NCBI RefSeq assembly: GCF_003334255.1
Contig: NZ_QOWU01000067.1
Length of the DNA: 22,187 bases
Source of the DNA: Escherichia coli
GTDB taxonomy: Bacteria > Pseudomonadota > Gammaproteobacteria > Enterobacterales > Enterobacteriaceae
Strand: one strand, 5' to 3'
The stretch's first letter is position 1. Every line of letters begins with the position of its first letter. The notes beneath the pieces are model-generated. The model did not search any database. It was not told the origin of the DNA and saw only the letters and a program-made list of their open reading frames with translations. A program made the translations under genes and the position numbers. Positions 2,271-20,620 of this stretch are shown piece by piece.

Positions 2271-2304
2271 GCCGGATGCGGCGTGAACGCCTTATCCGGC
2301 CTAC
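2271..2304. repeat. REP (repetitive extragenic palindromic) element
   Basis: GCCGGATGCGGCGTGAACGCCTTATCCGGCCTAC matches the classic E. coli REP/PU consensus; intergenic between uxuB and uxuR. Confidence 0.7.
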
Positions 2305-3908: not shown

Positions 3909-3988
3909 CGTAAACTCCAGAATCCGTCTTCAGAGAGTGACGGCAAGGAAGAAGGAACCGGCACGGCGCGCAGCCATGCCGGTGGATA

Positions 3989-5173
3989 TTAACGGCTAAA
4001 GAAAGCGCGCTGGATCGCCAGTTCGACACCGCGAACTTCGGCCAGGCCTTTCAGACGACCAATTGCGGAGTAACCTGGGTTGGTTTTCTTCTTCAGGTCG
4101 TCCAGCATCTGATGACCGTGGTCCGGACGCATCGGGATCAGGTCTTCTTTGCCTTCCGCTTTACGACGGTGTTCTTCTTCAACAATCGCTTTCACCACTT
4201 CGTACATATCAACGTCACCATTCAGGTGCGCCGCTTCGTGGAAGGTTTTCGGGTTATCTTCACGCATGGTGGAGCGCAGATGGGTGAAGTAAATACGCGG
4301 ACCGAACTGCTTGATCATATCAACCAGATCGTTGTCAGCACGCACGCCGTAGGAACCGGTGCACATGGTGAAACCGTTCGCCATGCTATTTACGGTATCA
4401 ACCATCCACTGCATATCTTCAATGGTAGAAACAATGCGCGGCAGGCCGAGGATTGGGCGCGGCGGATCGTCCGGGTGAACAGCCATACGCACGCCAACTT
4501 CTTCGGCAACCGGAATAATCGCCTTCAGGAAGACGGCAAAGTTTTCGCGCAGTTTGGCTTTGTCGATATCTTTGTACAGCTCCAGGTGCTTACGGAACTG
4601 GTCGAGGGTGTACCCTTCTTCCGCGCCCGGCAGACCGGCAATGATGTTACGGGTCAGACGCGCTTTGTCTTCGTCGCTCATAGTGGCGAAGCGTTCAGCT
4701 GCCTGAGCAATTTCTTCTTCGGTGTAATCCGCTTCCGCACCTGGGCGTTTCAGGATATGCATTTCGAATGCAGCGAATTCGATCTGGTCGAAGCGCAGAG
4801 CTTTGGAGCCGTCTGGCAGCACGTATTCGAGGTCAGTACGGGTCCAGTCGAGCACCGGCATGAAGTTGTAGCACACGGTGCGAATACCGCACTGCGCCAG
4901 GTTGCGCAGAGTCTGCTGATAGTTAGCGATCCACTGCTCATAGTTGCCAGTGTGGGTTTTGATATCTTCGTGAATTGGCACGCTTTCTACGACAGACCAC
5001 ACCAGGCCTGCATCTTCAACGATAGCCTTGCGTTTGAGGATCTCTTCTACGGACCATACTTCACCGTTCGGGATATGGTGCAAAGCGGTAACCACGCCAG
5101 TCGCGCCCGCCTGACGGACATCAGCTAAAGAAACCGGATCGTTTGGGCCGTACCAGCGCCAGGTCTGTTCCAT
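3989..5173 (-). CDS. uxuA: D-mannonate dehydratase, UxuA (394 aa)
   Basis: ORF 3989..5209 trimmed to the internal ATG at 5173 ([14 protein letters not shown]...), which is preceded by an AGAGGA Shine-Dalgarno on the minus strand; the longer N-terminal extension has no RBS. Confidence 0.93.
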
Positions 5174-5512: not shown

Positions 5513-6856
5513 ATGCATGTGCTTAACATTCTCTGGGTGGTATTCGGCATTGGTCTGATGCTGGTACTGAATTTGAAGTTCAAAATCAATTCAATGGTGG
5601 CCTTGTTGGTGGCGGCGCTGTCCGTCGGGATGCTGGCGGGCATGGATTTGATGTCGCTGCTGCACACCATGAAAGCGGGCTTCGGCAACACGCTGGGGGA
5701 ACTGGCTATCATCGTGGTGTTCGGTGCGGTCATCGGTAAATTGATGGTCGACTCCGGCGCGGCTCACCAGATAGCGCATACGCTGCTGGCACGTCTCGGT
5801 CTGCGTTATGTACAGCTGTCGGTGATTATCATCGGCCTGATTTTCGGTCTGGCGATGTTCTATGAAGTGGCCTTTATCATGTTAGCACCGCTGGTTATTG
5901 TTATTGCCGCCGAAGCTAAAATTCCGTTCCTGAAACTGGCGATCCCGGCAGTAGCAGCTGCCACTACCGCACATTCACTGTTCCCACCGCAGCCGGGTCC
6001 GGTGGCGCTGGTGAATGCTTATGGCGCGGATATGGGGATGGTTTATATCTATGGCGTACTGGTGACGATCCCAAGTGTCATCTGCGCAGGTCTGATCCTG
6101 CCGAAGTTCCTCGGCAATCTTGAGCGCCCAACGCCATCATTCCTGAAAGCAGATCAACCGGTAGATATGAATAATCTGCCCTCTTTCGGCGTTTCGATTC
6201 TGGTGCCGTTGATCCCGGCGATCATTATGATCTCTACCACCATCGCCAATATCTGGCTGGTAAAAGATACCCCTGCGTGGGAAGTGGTTAACTTTATCGG
6301 TTCCTCGCCGATTGCAATGTTTATTGCGATGGTGGTTGCATTCGTACTCTTTGGCACCGCGCGCGGGCACGATATGCAGTGGGTAATGAACGCTTTTGAA
6401 AGCGCGGTGAAAAGCATTGCAATGGTGATTCTGATCATCGGTGCAGGTGGCGTGCTGAAGCAGACCATCATCGACACCGGCATCGGCGACACCATCGGCA
6501 TGCTGATGTCCCACGGCAATATCTCGCCCTACATCATGGCATGGCTGATCACCGTACTGATTCGTCTGGCGACGGGTCAGGGTGTGGTTTCAGCGATGAC
6601 CGCCGCCGGGATTATCAGTGCAGCAATCCTTGATCCAGCAACTGGTCAGCTGGTTGGCGTGAATCCGGCGCTGCTGGTACTGGCGACGGCTGCGGGTTCC
6701 AACACCCTCACCCACATTAACGATGCCTCATTCTGGTTGTTCAAAGGTTACTTTGACCTGTCAGTAAAAGACACGTTGAAAACCTGGGGTCTGCTGGAGC
6801 TGGTCAACTCCGTGGTTGGGCTGATTATTGTGCTGATTATTAGCATGGTAGCGTAA
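5513..6856 (+). CDS. gntP: GntP-family gluconate/fructuronate:H+ permease (447 aa)
   Basis: Full-length, highly hydrophobic multi-helix [26 protein letters not shown]...; ATG at 5513; divergent from uxuA and adjacent to fimH as in E. coli. Confidence 0.93.
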
Positions 6857-6866
6857 AAGAGCACCT

Positions 6867-6900
6867 GAGCCTGCCATTGGCAGGCTCTGTTCGGATTGTC
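6867..6900 (+). terminator. Probable gntP terminator hairpin
   Basis: GAGCCTGCC (6867-6875) / GGCAGGCTC (6879-6887) inverted repeat beginning 11 bp after the gntP stop, followed by a T-containing tract (tgttcggattgt). Confidence 0.5.
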
Positions 6901-6920
6901 GGTAAAGTGCGCTTTGTTTA

Positions 6921-6957
6921 TGCCAGATGCGACGCTGACGCGTCTTATCTGGCCTAC
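6921..6957. repeat. REP-like element
   Basis: TGCCAGATGCGACGCTGACGCGTCTTATCTGGCCTAC resembles the REP consensus (GCC.GATGCG.CG ... CTTATC.GGCCTAC); lies between the convergent gntP and fimH. Confidence 0.6.
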
Positions 6958-7028
6958 AAAGGGCTAACGTGCAGGTTTTAGCTTCAGGTAATATTGCGTA
7001 CCTGCATTAGCAATGCCCTGTGATTTCT

Positions 7029-7931
7029 TTATTGATAAACAAAAGTCACGCCAATAATCGATTGCACATTCCCTGCAGTCACCTGCCCTCCGGTACGTGC
7101 GTAATTTGCCGTTAATCCCAGACTTACCGCCGAAGTCCCTACTGCTCCTAACGATACCGTGTTATTCGCTGGAATAATCGTACCGTTGCGCGTCAACTGT
7201 ACGCCGACGCCCTGTGCAGGTGAAAACGACGCGGTATTGGTGAAAATCGAGTTGCCCGCATCTGCGGTTGTGCCGGAGAGGTAATACCCCAGGTTTTGGC
7301 TTTTCGCACAATAAACGGTAAGAGGAATCGGCACTGAACCAGGGTAGTCCGGCAGAGTAACGGTGACATCACGAGCAGAAACATCGCAGCCGCCAGTGGG
7401 CACCACCACATCATTATTGGCGTAAATATTCCACACAAACTGGAAATCATCGCTGTTATAGTTGTTGGTCTGTCGCAAAATAAGCACGGCAATTAATGAG
7501 CCAGCTTTAATCACCACCCCGCCCGCACTGCTCACAGGCGTCAAATAAAGCGCCACCGGCCACGGCTTATCCGTTCTCGAATTATAAACAACCCGCGGCG
7601 TTTCACTGGTGGTCGGAAATGGATAGCTACTGCCACTATATTTTACGGTCCCGGAAAAATTAGATAACACGCCGCCATAAGCCGAGCCTCGTTGCAGTGT
7701 GACATAATCTGTAATGGTTTCCGGGTAATCGTTATGGCAAAAGATTTGCGTCGAAAGATCCACGACCAGGTTTTGCCCCACATTCACGGCGGGCGCAAGG
7801 TTTACATAAACATTGGCGCTGCCACCGCCAATAGGGATAGCGGTGCCATTGGCGGTTTTACAGGCGAATGACCAGGCATTTACCGACCAGCCCATCAGCA
7901 GTATAGCAAACAGGTTAATAACTCGTTTCAT
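7029..7931 (-). CDS. fimH: Type 1 fimbrial tip adhesin FimH, mannose-specific (300 aa)
   Basis: ORF trimmed to the ATG at 7931 (MKRVINLFAILLMGWSVNAWSFACKTANGTAIPIGGG...); signal peptide followed by lectin and pilin domains; last gene of the fim operon. Confidence 0.95.
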   Translation of the reverse strand: MKRVINLFAILLMGWSVNAWSFACKTANGTAIPIGGGSANVYVNLAPAVNVGQNLVVDLSTQIFCHNDYPETITDYVTLQRGSAYGGVLSNFSGTVKYSGSSYPFPTTSETPRVVYNSRTDKPWPVALYLTPVSSAGGVVIKAGSLIAVLILRQTNNYNSDDFQFVWNIYANNDVVVPTGGCDVSARDVTVTLPDYPGSVPIPLTVYCAKSQNLGYYLSGTTADAGNSIFTNTASFSPAQGVGVQLTRNGTIIPANNTVSLGAVGTSAVSLGLTANYARTGGQVTAGNVQSIIGVTFVYQ

Positions 7932-7950
7932 TACAATCATCTCTTCGGCT

Positions 7951-8454
7951 TCAGCTGTAGGTATAGGTGATGCTAATCACTGCCTGAATGGTTCCCTGAG
8001 TGGCTCCGCCATTTACCGTCAATGCTCTGACCTGTAACGGGAAGTGCGCTGATTGTGAGGAATCATCCACCTGAACTGTTTTGGTTGCGCCACTATTCAA
8101 TGTGTTGCCACTGTCATCCTGTAGCTCTAACTGGATGTTTTGCGCGGTCCCCTGGTTTTTATAATATCCGGTACTGTCGGCTGCCCCGCTGAAGCTGGCA
8201 GTGACCCTCGACGTTCCCACCGGACAATTAGTCAACTCAAGCGCAACATCATGCCAGGCCGATGCCGCCCCGGCAGACATCAGACTGAAAGAATAAAGAT
8301 CGCCGAGATCTACCGTGGCATTGGTGGTGGAAACCGTGCACGGTTTGGCGACGACCTTACCGTTCACCGTGATGGTGACATCGGCTGCCTGTATCGTCGC
8401 ACTTGCGAGCGCCAATATTGCCGCCAATACATACCCACGTTTGCACCATTTCAT
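7951..8454 (-). CDS. fimG: Type 1 fimbrial minor subunit FimG (167 aa)
   Basis: ORF trimmed to the ATG at 8454 (MKWCKRGYVLAAILALASATIQAADVTITV...); pilin fold with signal peptide; between fimF and fimH. Confidence 0.93.
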   Translation of the reverse strand: MKWCKRGYVLAAILALASATIQAADVTITVNGKVVAKPCTVSTTNATVDLGDLYSFSLMSAGAASAWHDVALELTNCPVGTSRVTASFSGAADSTGYYKNQGTAQNIQLELQDDSGNTLNSGATKTVQVDDSSQSAHFPLQVRALTVNGGATQGTIQAVISITYTYS

Positions 8455-8466
8455 GAGCATCTCCAG

Positions 8467-8997
8467 TTACTGATATTCAAGAGTGAAGGTAGCCGTGGCA
8501 TTGATATGCCCCGCAGTGACAGGCACCTGTGTCGCCATTAGCCGGGCGTAAAAATTCAGCGTATTTGGTTTACCCGGCGTCAGGGTCGTCCACGAAATCG
8601 CGGACGATGGGGCATTAAGGGGTATCTGATTTTGTTGCTCATTCAGAAGCTGTATTCCCAGTCCCGCAGCCGCTGACACCGTATTTTCAAGTGCAAGCAG
8701 GTTGGCATTGTGGCTATCTGCAACACCGGTAAACCCAACTTTTACGGCAGAAACGGCATTACCACAGGGTGACAGCAAAATACGAAATGGAACGACAGGA
8801 GTCGTCGCGCCAATGTTGTTAAATTGCTTCGCCGCGTTTTCCATCAGATCAACAGTAAAATTGGTTGATTCAGCGGCCACACTACAGCCGTTATCTCTGA
8901 CATAGCCGCGGATAGTAATCGTGCTATCCGCAGCCAAAGCGTGACTTACCGCCAGCCACAAAAAAGCGCACAGAAGATAAAAAGGTTTGTTTCTCAT
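8467..8997 (-). CDS. fimF: Type 1 fimbrial minor subunit FimF (176 aa)
   Basis: [22 protein letters not shown]...; ATG at 8997 (the ORF track's first residue is a GTG at 9000); stop 6 bp before fimG. Confidence 0.93.
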
Positions 8998-9006
8998 CAC
9001 GCCCCC

Positions 9007-17974: not shown

Positions 17975-19081
17975 ATGAATAAAACAATAACGGCGCTTGC
18001 TATCATGATGGCTTCATTTGCCGCAAACGCGTCTGTATTACCGGAAACTCCTGTGCCATTTAAAAGTGGTACCGGAGCAATTGATAACGACACTGTCTAC
18101 ATTGGTTTAGGTAGCGCAGGTACGGCATGGTACAAGCTGGATACACAGGCCAAAGATAAAAAATGGACAGCGTTAGCTGCATTCCCTGGCGGACCAAGAG
18201 ATCAAGCAACCTCTGCATTTATTGATGGCAATCTGTATGTGTTTGGCGGCATTGGCAAAAACAGCGAGGGCTTGACTCAGGTATTTAATGATGTACACAA
18301 ATACAACCCCAAAACCAATAGCTGGGTTAAATTGATGTCGCACGCGCCGATGGGCATGGCGGGCCATGTGACTTTTGTACACAACGGCAAGGCTTATGTT
18401 ACTGGCGGTGTTAACCAGAATATCTTCAATGGCTATTTTGAAGATCTCAACGAGGCTGGAAAAGATTCAACCGCTATAGATAAAATCAACGCCCACTATT
18501 TTGACAAAAAAGCAGAAGATTATTTCTTCAATAAGTTTCTGTTGTCTTTTGATCCCTCAACACAGCAATGGAGTTACGCTGGCGAATCGCCCTGGTACGG
18601 AACGGCTGGTGCGGCGGTTGTGAATAAAGGTGATAAAACCTGGCTTATTAATGGCGAAGCCAAACCAGGATTGCGAACGGATGCCGTATTTGAACTTGAT
18701 TTCACCGGTAATAATTTAAAATGGAATAAGCTTGATCCCGTCTCATCACCAGATGGCGTCGCTGGCGGTTTTGCGGGGATAAGCAATGATTCTCTTATAT
18801 TTGCCGGAGGGGCCGGATTCAAAGGTTCACGAGAAAATTACCAGAACGGTAAGAACTATGCGCATGAAGGCCTGAAAAAATCATATAGCACTGATATTCA
18901 TCTTTGGCATAACGGGAAATGGGATAAATCGGGTGAATTATCGCAAGGTCGGGCCTACGGAGTATCATTGCCCTGGAATAATAGTTTATTAATTATTGGC
19001 GGTGAAACTGCAGGCGGCAAAGCGGTGACGGATTCAGTTTTAATTTCTGTGAAGGATAATAAAGTCACAGTACAAAACTAA
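17975..19081 (+). CDS. nanM: N-acetylneuraminate epimerase (mutarotase) NanM, periplasmic Kelch-repeat protein (368 aa)
   Basis: ORF 17867..19081 trimmed to the ATG at 17975 (MNKTITALAIMMASFAANASVLPE...), preceded by AGGAGA at 17961-17966; repeated Gly-Gly-containing Kelch-like blades (e.g. LYVFGGIG, AYVTGGVN, LLIIGGET). Confidence 0.9.
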   Translation: MNKTITALAIMMASFAANASVLPETPVPFKSGTGAIDNDTVYIGLGSAGTAWYKLDTQAKDKKWTALAAFPGGPRDQATSAFIDGNLYVFGGIGKNSEGLTQVFNDVHKYNPKTNSWVKLMSHAPMGMAGHVTFVHNGKAYVTGGVNQNIFNGYFEDLNEAGKDSTAIDKINAHYFDKKAEDYFFNKFLLSFDPSTQQWSYAGESPWYGTAGAAVVNKGDKTWLINGEAKPGLRTDAVFELDFTGNNLKWNKLDPVSSPDGVAGGFAGISNDSLIFAGGAGFKGSRENYQNGKNYAHEGLKKSYSTDIHLWHNGKWDKSGELSQGRAYGVSLPWNNSLLIIGGETAGGKAVTDSVLISVKDNKVTVQN

Positions 19082-19088
19082 CGCTTCA

Positions 19089-19108
19089 GGGCCCCGGTAA
19101 AGGGGCCC
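19089..19108 (+). other. GC-rich intercistronic hairpin between nanM and nanS
   Basis: GGGCCCC (19089-19095) / GGGGCCC (19102-19108) with a 6-nt loop, beginning 7 bp after the nanM stop; no clean U-tract follows, so it is more likely an attenuating or stabilising structure than a full terminator. Confidence 0.4.
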
Positions 19109-19145
19109 TGCTATCAATTTGTCATTTGTATTACGCGAAAATTAT

Positions 19146-20126
19146 ATGAACGCAATAATATCGCCCGATTATTACTATGTTCTTACCGTTGCTGGTCAGT
19201 CTAATGCCATGGCGTATGGCGAAGGACTGCCATTACCGGACAGGGAAGATGCGCCTCATTCCAGAATTAAACAATTAGCGAGATTTGCGCATACGCATCC
19301 CGGAGGCCCGCCATGTCACTTTAACGACATTATTCCACTGACTCACTGCCCACACGATGTTCAGGATATGCAGGGTTATCACCATCCTCTGGCAACGAAT
19401 CATCAAACACAGTACGGCACCGTTGGCCAGGCACTGCATATTGCACGGAAATTACTGCCCTTCATTCCTGATAATGCAGGGATTCTTATCGTTCCGTGTT
19501 GCCGTGGCGGATCGGCTTTTACCGCGGGCAGCGAAGGGACATATTCAGAACGGCACGGAGCCAGCCATGATGCTTGTCGTTGGGGAACGGATACTCCGCT
19601 GTACCAGGATTTAGTCAGCAGAACGCGAGCCGCACTGGCAAAAAATCCGCAGAACAAATTCCTCGGCGTATGCTGGATGCAAGGCGAATTTGACTTAATG
19701 ACCAGTGACTACGCGTCACACCCTCAACACTTTAATCATATGGTTGAAGCCTTTCGTAGGGATCTAAAACAATACCATTCTCAGCTTAATAATATTACTG
19801 ACGCGCCGTGGTTTTGCGGCGATACCACCTGGTACTGGAAAGAAAATTTCCCGCATTCGTATGAAGCTATTTATGGCAATTATCAAAATAATGTTTTAGC
19901 CAATATTATTTTCGTCGACTTCCAGCAACAAGGTGAAAGAGGACTGACGAACGCGCCTGATGAAGACCCGGACGATTTAAGCACGGGATATTACGGTTCA
20001 GCGTACCGGTCACCGGAGAACTGGACGACGGCACTGCGAAGCAGTCATTTCAGCACTGCAGCCCGTCGGGGGATTATTTCTGACAGATTTGTAGAAGCAA
20101 TTTTGCAGTTTTGGCGCGAAAGGTGA
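19146..20126 (+). CDS. nanS: 9-O-acetyl-N-acetylneuraminate esterase NanS (SGNH-hydrolase-like, 326 aa)
   Basis: ORF 19119..20126 trimmed to the ATG at 19146 (MNAIISPDYYYVLTVAGQSNAMAYGE...); the GQSNA motif is the SGNH-family catalytic serine block; third gene of the nanCMS operon. Confidence 0.88.
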   Translation: MNAIISPDYYYVLTVAGQSNAMAYGEGLPLPDREDAPHSRIKQLARFAHTHPGGPPCHFNDIIPLTHCPHDVQDMQGYHHPLATNHQTQYGTVGQALHIARKLLPFIPDNAGILIVPCCRGGSAFTAGSEGTYSERHGASHDACRWGTDTPLYQDLVSRTRAALAKNPQNKFLGVCWMQGEFDLMTSDYASHPQHFNHMVEAFRRDLKQYHSQLNNITDAPWFCGDTTWYWKENFPHSYEAIYGNYQNNVLANIIFVDFQQQGERGLTNAPDEDPDDLSTGYYGSAYRSPENWTTALRSSHFSTAARRGIISDRFVEAILQFWRER

Positions 20127-20620
20127 GCGGGGAGTTTATTCATGGGGGATGTCCTTGTTCGTTCTCAGAGTAGACAACAAAAAACAAATGAGATCAAGGT
20201 AATATCTCTTCACTTGCGGGCTCGAACAGCAGGCAATTGCCAATATAATAATCTGGCACAAGGGTGAAAAACGCGCACCGCATAAACCGTTGTTATTGCT
20301 TACAGATTAGCCGGATGCCTTAATAGACATCCGCGCCTTTTCGATTATGGCTCGGAAATCTACGAACATCTACACAGTTTACTGGAACGTTTTGGGCCAC
20401 AGCGTTCGCAGCACCGTCCTGATATGCCGTTCTGGCGATTATAAGTCGACGGATTCTGGCAAATAGACGATGATGATATGCTTAATGATGTTCAAAGAAA
20501 TTAGGCCATTATTATATTATTGCTTGCATTTTCTTTCATTCCTAAAAGCACCCGCCATTAATCCCAGGCGCATTATGCAAAGGAAAATGATTAGGTAAAC
20601 AATAAGATTTATAATAAGGA

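Follow-up and report, generated by a model that had tools for sequence, protein, structure and literature searches.

The window analyzed here, a 22,187-nt stretch of Escherichia coli DNA, is identical to the corresponding region of E. coli ATCC 11775 and carries yjiC, uxuR, uxuB, uxuA, gntP, fimH to fimB, nanC, nanM, nanS, and yjhR. RefSeq annotation of the ATCC 11775 region places nanC first in the nan operon, followed by nanM and by nanS as the distal gene (Table 1), in agreement with the nanM, nanS, and nanCMS operon calls made in an earlier sequence-only reading of the window. The nanM stop codon ends at 19081 and the nanS ATG begins at 19146; therefore, positions 19082 to 19145 make up the entire 64-nt nanM-nanS spacer. 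The gap between nanC and nanM is only 19 nt and contains no hairpin. A strong Shine-Dalgarno sequence (AGGAGA) lies 8 nt 5′ of the nanM ATG (17950-17977 inspected), while no recognizable Shine-Dalgarno sequence for nanS was present at 19121-19148 (gtattacgcgaaaattatATG). This difference, together with the high A+T content of the spacer 3′ of the hairpin, suggests that the distal segment of the message is probably less protected by ribosomes and less translated.

Table 1. Positions of the nan operon features and of other structures in the window
Feature	Position	Strand	Description	Source
nanC	17239..17955	+	First operon gene, outer-membrane channel	RefSeq annotation of the identical ATCC 11775 region
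nanM (N-acetylneuraminate epimerase)	17975..19081	+	Stop TAA 19079-19081	RefSeq annotation of the identical ATCC 11775 region
Hairpin 5′ arm	19087..19095	+	CAGGGCCCC; pair probabilities 0.93-1.0	
Hairpin hexaloop	19096..19101	+	GGTAAA; first base G/A polymorphic in E. coli	
Hairpin 3′ arm	19102..19110	+	GGGGCCCTG; perfect pairing with 5′ arm	
Spacer 3′ of hairpin	19111..19145	+	74% A+T, no U-run, no Shine-Dalgarno sequence for nanS	
nanS (sialate O-acetylesterase)	19146..20126	+	Distal gene, ATG at 19146	RefSeq annotation of ATCC 11775
ythB (K-12 small protein gene)	~20045-20143	−	Antisense to nanS 3′ end; MG1655 4536597-4536695	
Terminator-like structure	20310-20341	+	GCCGGAUG...CAUCCGCGC, then CUUUUCG	
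REP-like palindrome	2271-2300		GCCGGATGCGGCGTGAACGCCTTATCCGGC; between uxuR and uxuB	
REP-like palindrome	6923-6952		CCAGATGCGACGCTGACGCGTCTTATCTGG; between gntP and fimH	
Perfect 10-bp palindrome	6867-6887		Just past gntP stop, between convergent gntP and fimH	
uxuA-uxuB hairpin	3957-3983	−	ACCGGCATGGCTGCGCGCCGTGCCGGT; −22 kcal/mol	

According to the Vimr review (PMC3658417), loss of nanR or the presence of Neu5Ac raises the nanS message along with those of nanC and nanM, and cells require nanS to grow on Neu5,9Ac2. Transcription must therefore read through the hairpin that lies in the spacer. An internal promoter for nanS was considered and rejected: there was no promoter-like site on the + strand between 19082 and 19145, and for the only near-match, TTGTCA at 19119, the −10 element would fall on the nanS start codon itself. 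On the far side of the operon, the terminator scan of the window found no canonical terminator directly 3′ of nanS. The first terminator-like structure past the gene lies ~185 nt beyond its stop codon, within an annotated restriction-endonuclease pseudogene fragment. In K-12, ythB overlaps the 3′ end of nanS in antisense. A region of Rho-dependent termination listed by Adams et al. lies close by, at MG1655 4536716 (+), equivalent to about position 20024 of the window on the − strand; antisense transcription therefore enters nanS from downstream. This region was the only nearby feature in the Adams 2021 supplements.

Structure and stability of the spacer hairpin

The nanM-nanS stem consists of 9 perfect pairs, 8 of which are G-C. 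It begins 5 nt past the nanM stop codon and ends 35 nt ahead of the nanS ATG. The sequence-only reading had described a 7-bp stem, GGGCCCC/GGGGCCC; this core was found at 19089-19095 and 19102-19108, separated by 7 nt from the stop codon and by 37 nt from the ATG in line with that reading, but the stem itself is 9 bp long, not 7. A folding free-energy calculation, which that reading had proposed as a check, gave −21.0 kcal/mol for the hairpin alone and bore out the claimed stability. The best 30-nt frame at the hairpin (−21.5 kcal/mol; window mean, −3.5; standard deviation, 2.75) ranked first on the + strand of the 22-kb window, and the hairpin is more stable than either of the REP-like elements in Table 1. 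The probabilities of all nine stem pairs held when the hairpin was folded in a 341-nt context, and the z-score for its 91-nt context was −3.0. In dinucleotide shuffles of the window, stems of 9 perfect pairs, 7 or more of them G/C, around a loop of 3 to 8 nt were expected 0.043 times per shuffle, and 3.9% of 1,000 shuffles contained any. The hairpin is thus real and stronger than first noted.

Identity with REP/BIME or another dispersed repeat was rejected, as the sequence has one match in the window and is single copy per genome, always at nanM. The hairpin resembles REP elements, known as stabilizers in malEFG, in being a GC-rich palindrome in an intercistronic spacer, but its sequence is unlike the REP consensus and each genome has a single copy. 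A search of the whole window against Rfam at the gathering threshold gave no match at the hairpin, and a search of the local region at E values up to 10 gave only chance-level matches (E ≥ 2). An RNase III site was likewise set aside on background knowledge of the enzyme's substrates, for which a 9-bp stem would be too short. The literature search found no description of a nanM-nanS hairpin. Term-seq and decay tables (Adams et al. 2021; Dar and Sorek, as searched) listed no 3′ end or half-life for nanM, nanS, or their junction, probably because the growth conditions left the operon silent.

Elsewhere in the window, two REP-like palindromes and a perfect 10-bp palindrome occupy other intergenic positions (Table 1). 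A second strong hairpin, the top 30-nt fold of the − strand, lies directly after the uxuA stop codon and is followed by a pyrimidine-rich tail with no U-run (UCCUUCUUCC). This hairpin, within the uxuAB operon, looks like the nanM-nanS element in kind.

Conservation and variation at the nanM 3′ end

Of 5,426 complete E. coli genomes, 5,036 contained the hairpin 37-mer, at 5,040 sites in total that all lay at the nanM end, with a median of one per genome. Haplotypes were counted as exact matches of five 37-mers on the basis of the 5,036 genomes. The reference form was present in 3,253 genomes and a loop variant, G19096>A, in 448. Loss of one G from the G-run, leaving an 8-bp stem and a 7-nt loop, was found in 660 genomes, and the same loss combined with the loop G>A change in 184. 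A C>T change in the 3′ arm (GGGGCCTTG), which produces a G·U pair, accounted for 330. These five commonest haplotypes cover 96.8% of the 5,036 genomes, and each of the five retains a sense stem of at least 8 bp. Strain CUVET21-37 carries a different C>T change with the same effect on the sense RNA, G·U in place of G-C. In the reference sequence, the mirror (antisense) hairpin is as stable as the sense hairpin; the G·U variants cost the sense hairpin ~3 to 4 kcal/mol and the antisense hairpin, in which they create an A·C mismatch, 4 to 7 kcal/mol. Changes that are tolerated as G·U in the sense RNA but mismatched in the antisense RNA suggest that it is the sense transcript on which selection acts.

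Several E. coli strains, including C600, TW10722, Ecol_743, Z1323HEC0010, E5, and CEA106S (loci L002, L004, L005, L006, L009, and L011), carry a nanS that RefSeq annotates as a truncated pseudogene (“missing C-terminus,” 345 to 615 nt). The distal gene of the operon is therefore often decaying while nanM and the hairpin persist.

A GTDB scan with a single NanM protein returned only 4 close Escherichia loci, and farther loci were reached by protein search and contig look-ups. Two lineages with intact nanS carry compensatory double changes in the stem: L013 (CAGGGCTCC/GGAGCCCTG) has a C-G to U-A replacement at position 7, and L015 (CAGGGCCTC/GAGGCCCTG) has the same replacement at position 8. L019, a nanC-nanM locus without nanS, shows the L013-type change at position 7 with another loop. 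In Escherichia albertii L017, where nanS is down to 5 codons, a 7-bp stem (GGCUCCU/AGGAGCC) is kept. In a model-based alignment of eight related Escherichia sequences, 98.6% of cells were paired, compared with 16 to 61% in slid-partner controls, and two pairs had changed on both sides. The covariation score was reached by 0 of 500 shuffles, and the number of covarying pairs by 48 of 500, in what is a small, related sample. The covariation evidence for the hairpin is therefore supportive rather than conclusive, and C-G to U-A changes would equally keep a DNA palindrome. Taken together, however, the covariation and the G·U polymorphisms argue that a sense-strand RNA structure is under selection, which would fit an RNA-level role such as differential stability.

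Hairpins also follow nanM at more distant loci. L024, whose NanM is 71% identical and whose gene order is nanE-nanK-nanC-nanM-nanS with intact nanS, has AGCCCGGAG-AUAU-CUCCGGGCU located 5 nt past the stop codon and without a U-tract; L027 has the same hairpin with a U·G pair. In L021 and L022, GACUCUC-GUGCA-GAGAGUC follows nanM and an MFS gene comes next. Stems of 13 bp follow nanM in L037 (Salmonella diarizonae), where the stem is interrupted and lies ahead of an MFS gene, and in L035, where it lies ahead of a sialidase gene. All of these are U-less hairpins of unrelated sequence that lie 5 to 30 nt behind nanM. In Klebsiella oxytoca, in which nanM is terminal, a hairpin and a T5 run lie ~60 nt downstream. 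Salmonella Eastbourne had no hairpin after nanM, which there overlaps the next gene. A covariance model of the Escherichia hairpins (R1) did not recover the L021, L024, or L027 hairpins, so that these structures are treated as positional analogues rather than as homologues; they may be ordinary operon-internal or terminal structures. The hairpin is tied to the nanM 3′ end rather than to nanS, and equivalents follow nanM where nanS is not next; like the full length of the stem, neither point was made in the sequence-only reading.

Several rearrangements lie at or near the hairpin (L014 and L016, 3617-3713; L012; L007). In Escherichia whittamii and Escherichia sp. E1V33, most of nanS is lost and homology to the window stops within the 5′ arm (CAGGG|), between 19091 and 19092; a new weak hairpin, UUUUCAGG...CCUGAAAA, is formed at the deletion junction. 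In strain fS149a, IS1 is inserted flush with the 3′ arm, and in strain PK8217, IS903B replaces the nanM 3′ end and the hairpin. In E. whittamii (L014, 1-2268) and SCPM-O-B-8794 (L015, 1-2365), the uxuA flank joins nearly directly to nanM, and the block containing gntP, the fim cluster, and nanC (~12.4 kb; window 5514-17934) is absent. As a result, nanM, and in L015 also nanS, stands there without the NanR-regulated nanC promoter region. Of the insertions that survived a transposition and competition study with DARS2, 2.2% were in the nanS-nanM intergenic region (PMC5010248), indicating that the spacer tolerates insertion under laboratory growth.

Termination and other readings of the hairpin

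A canonical intrinsic terminator would share several features with the nan hairpin: a GC-rich stem of suitable size (9 bp with a 6-nt loop) located right behind a stop codon. It would differ in having a U-tract of 7 to 9 nt. The + strand tail of the nan hairpin, CUAUCAAUUUGUCAUUUG (also given as CUAUCAAUUUGU), contains 3 U among its first 8 nt and never four or more in a row, and the terminator scan of the window did not call the site. The GC-rich stem-loop of an intrinsic terminator is thus present, the U-rich tract directly 3′ of it is absent, and the hairpin does not end the transcription unit, because nanS follows 35 nt on, is co-induced with the proximal genes (PMC3658417), and has no promoter-like site of its own in between. 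The position of the stem, 5 nt from the stop codon, is also one where ribosomes suppress termination (PMC4824070); the tR2 terminator, when placed a few base pairs behind a gene, was repressed almost completely in vivo (PMC4824070). These observations uphold the earlier view that the hairpin has no U-tract and is unlikely to be a full intrinsic terminator. A terminator acting on the antisense strand was rejected as well: the tail on that strand (AAGCGUUAGUUUUGU) lacks a U-run next to the stem, nothing converges on the site, and the G·U variants favor the sense strand.

The main rival to a protective hairpin is partial termination, and the two are not mutually exclusive. Both roles had been suggested in the sequence-only reading, whose interpretation is reasonable and partly supported. 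A hairpin this stable might just as well make polymerase pause or terminate weakly. Some RNA polymerases would then stop after nanM, either intrinsically on an imperfect tail of scattered U residues or through a transfer to Rho on the untranslated spacer, such that less nanS than nanCM mRNA would be synthesized. We regard this as possible, though unlikely. The 9-bp GC-rich stem of −21 kcal/mol would suit such an attenuator, and 6 U fall within the first 12 nt of the tail (AUUUGU at +7 to +12); only 3 of these lie in the first 8 nt, however, and as no four or more are consecutive, the site does not pass the terminator scan. Tails are U-richer in relatives that lack nanS downstream (L019, UUAUCAAUGUUUU; L021, CUACAUUUUAUUUU; L023, with a T8 run), but the nanS-bearing L013 and L024 have tails that are even U-poorer, with 2 or 3 U in 8 nt and 3 or 4 in 12. 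A role for Rho would be consistent with the lack of a Shine-Dalgarno sequence for nanS, with the untranslated 35-nt spacer, and with a C/G ratio that climbs to 1.4 to 1.6 over 19260 to 19460 (mild rut-likeness), and trimming of Rho-dependent 3′ ends as far as U-less hairpins is documented (PMC6061677). Against this, no significant Rho termination was detected at comparable E. coli hairpins (Dar and Sorek, PMC5927463), and at 5 nt from the stop codon the 5′ arm would be masked by a terminating or coupled ribosome, much as for the repressed tR2 terminator (PMC4824070).

Two further readings are less likely. The hairpin could be the former terminator of an ancestral nanC-nanM operon whose U-tract decayed once nanS (in other lineages, a gene for a transporter or a sialidase) had joined the operon behind it; its present role would then be confined to nanM 3′-end stability when the distal gene is lost, with no regulatory meaning for nanS. 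Persistence of a hairpin after nanM whatever follows, including the loci with a remnant or no nanS (E. albertii L017, L019, and L027), fits this account, as do the hairpin and T5 run downstream of the terminal nanM of K. oxytoca, the frequent truncation or loss of nanS in E. coli and relatives, and the existence of close E. coli relatives without nanS (Vimr, PMC3658417). The compensatory changes, however, arose in lineages with intact nanS (L013 and L015), and the distant L024 has an independent U-less hairpin between nanM and an intact nanS, which argues that the structure is maintained, not decaying, in the nanS-containing arrangement. Salmonella Eastbourne, in which nanM overlaps the next gene and has no hairpin, further indicates that the hairpin is not an obligate appendage of nanM. 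On balance, we consider a decayed terminator improbable. Still less probable, and in our judgment very much so, is a function of the 9-6-9 inverted repeat as DNA, be it as the site of a dimeric protein, a cruciform, or a slippage-prone rearrangement site at the nanM/nanS boundary. The repeat is perfect, rearrangement endpoints cluster at the hairpin (E. whittamii, E1V33, and fS149a), and a DARS2 transposon insertion in the spacer was recovered in an evolution experiment (PMC5010248). The rearrangements are nevertheless few and are also explained by frequent decay of nanS, and the site lies inside the operon, far from the NanR-regulated promoter. Moreover, it is pairing and not stem sequence that is conserved between lineages, and three independent sense G·U variants (those in the 330 E. 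coli genomes, CUVET21-37, and L027) are mismatches in DNA and in antisense RNA.

Comparison with protective intercistronic hairpins

The reading that we favor, at roughly even confidence, is that the hairpin is a 3′-protective intercistronic stem-loop that would block 3′-exonucleolytic decay of the nanC-nanM segment and would not mark the end of the transcript. In the sequence of events that we infer, RNA polymerase would read through the hairpin because there is no U-tract and because the ribosome terminating at the nanM stop codon would cover the 5′ arm. Subsequent cleavage within the poorly translated, A/U-rich spacer or the nanS leader, or a Rho-mediated end further downstream, would then provide a 3′ end; the spacer 3′ of the hairpin would be the putative entry region for RNase E or Rho. 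PNPase and RNase II would trim back in the 3′-to-5′ direction and stall at the 9-bp GC stem, so that nanC-nanM would persist as a stable message while the nanS segment would decay sooner. In combination with the lack of a Shine-Dalgarno sequence for nanS, the hairpin would let a single NanR-controlled promoter supply NanC and NanM in excess of NanS. The predicted parts of this model are the cleavage, the stalling of the exonucleases, and the stoichiometry that would follow. What the analysis shows is the structure, its exceptional stability, the missing U-tract, selection acting on it as sense-strand RNA, and the recurrence of hairpins after nanM in other lineages.

Hairpins of this class are known in E. 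coli. Among operon pairs with a stabilized 5′ gene, 26 of 34 had a stable 3′ end just after a strong U-less hairpin; these hairpins are conserved in Salmonella and Enterobacter, and no significant Rho termination was detected there (Dar and Sorek 2018, PMC5927463). U-less hairpins guard RNA against PNPase and RNase II (PMC6061677). The nan hairpin shows the sequence and structural features of the class: stability far above the local background, no U-tract, a position inside an operon 3′ of the proximal genes, and a conserved structure. As in the set of Dar and Sorek and at malE-malF, a stable stem-loop without a U-tract lies within an operon 3′ of proximal, presumably more abundant genes; its structure is conserved among relatives, and the distal gene, here nanS, is likely less well translated. 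It differs from malE-malF in being a single-copy sequence and not a REP/BIME repeat. Whereas 17 of the 26 hairpins of Dar and Sorek lie inside the downstream open reading frame (PMC5927463), the nan hairpin is intergenic, and while theirs are backed by Term-seq 3′ ends and half-lives, the nan hairpin is a candidate member by sequence and structure. It is also similar to the trimmed ends of Rho-dependent transcripts at U-less hairpins, in that a stable hairpin precedes an unstructured, mildly C-over-G, poorly translated region. Those ends mark the ends of transcripts, however, whereas transcription of the nan operon must continue into nanS in at least some events; no Rho region was reported at the nan site, in a data set where the operon was probably not expressed. 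On the reading favored here, the hairpin would represent an ordinary, known kind of operon fine-tuning and not a new kind of mechanism.

The recurrence behind nanM allows a broader and more speculative proposal, which we put forward as unlikely but worth stating. A U-less hairpin directly after nanM might be a “module boundary” of the nanC-nanM core that has evolved repeatedly and independently and would fix the 3′ end of a stable core transcript. Accessory genes (the nanS esterase, an MFS transporter, or a sialidase) would be appended behind it at lower, tunable expression, and the palindrome may also bias where deletions and insertions occur through which the accessory gene is exchanged or lost.

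If the nanM-nanS hairpin does act as a protective stem-loop, it would explain how unequal amounts of porin and mutarotase on the one hand and O-acetyl esterase on the other arise from one NanR-controlled promoter. It would also add a clean intergenic, single-copy case with covariation support to the E. coli hairpins that shape mRNA decay. With its short stem, natural G·U and compensatory variants, and a simple growth read-out for nanS on Neu5,9Ac2, it would make a convenient test case.
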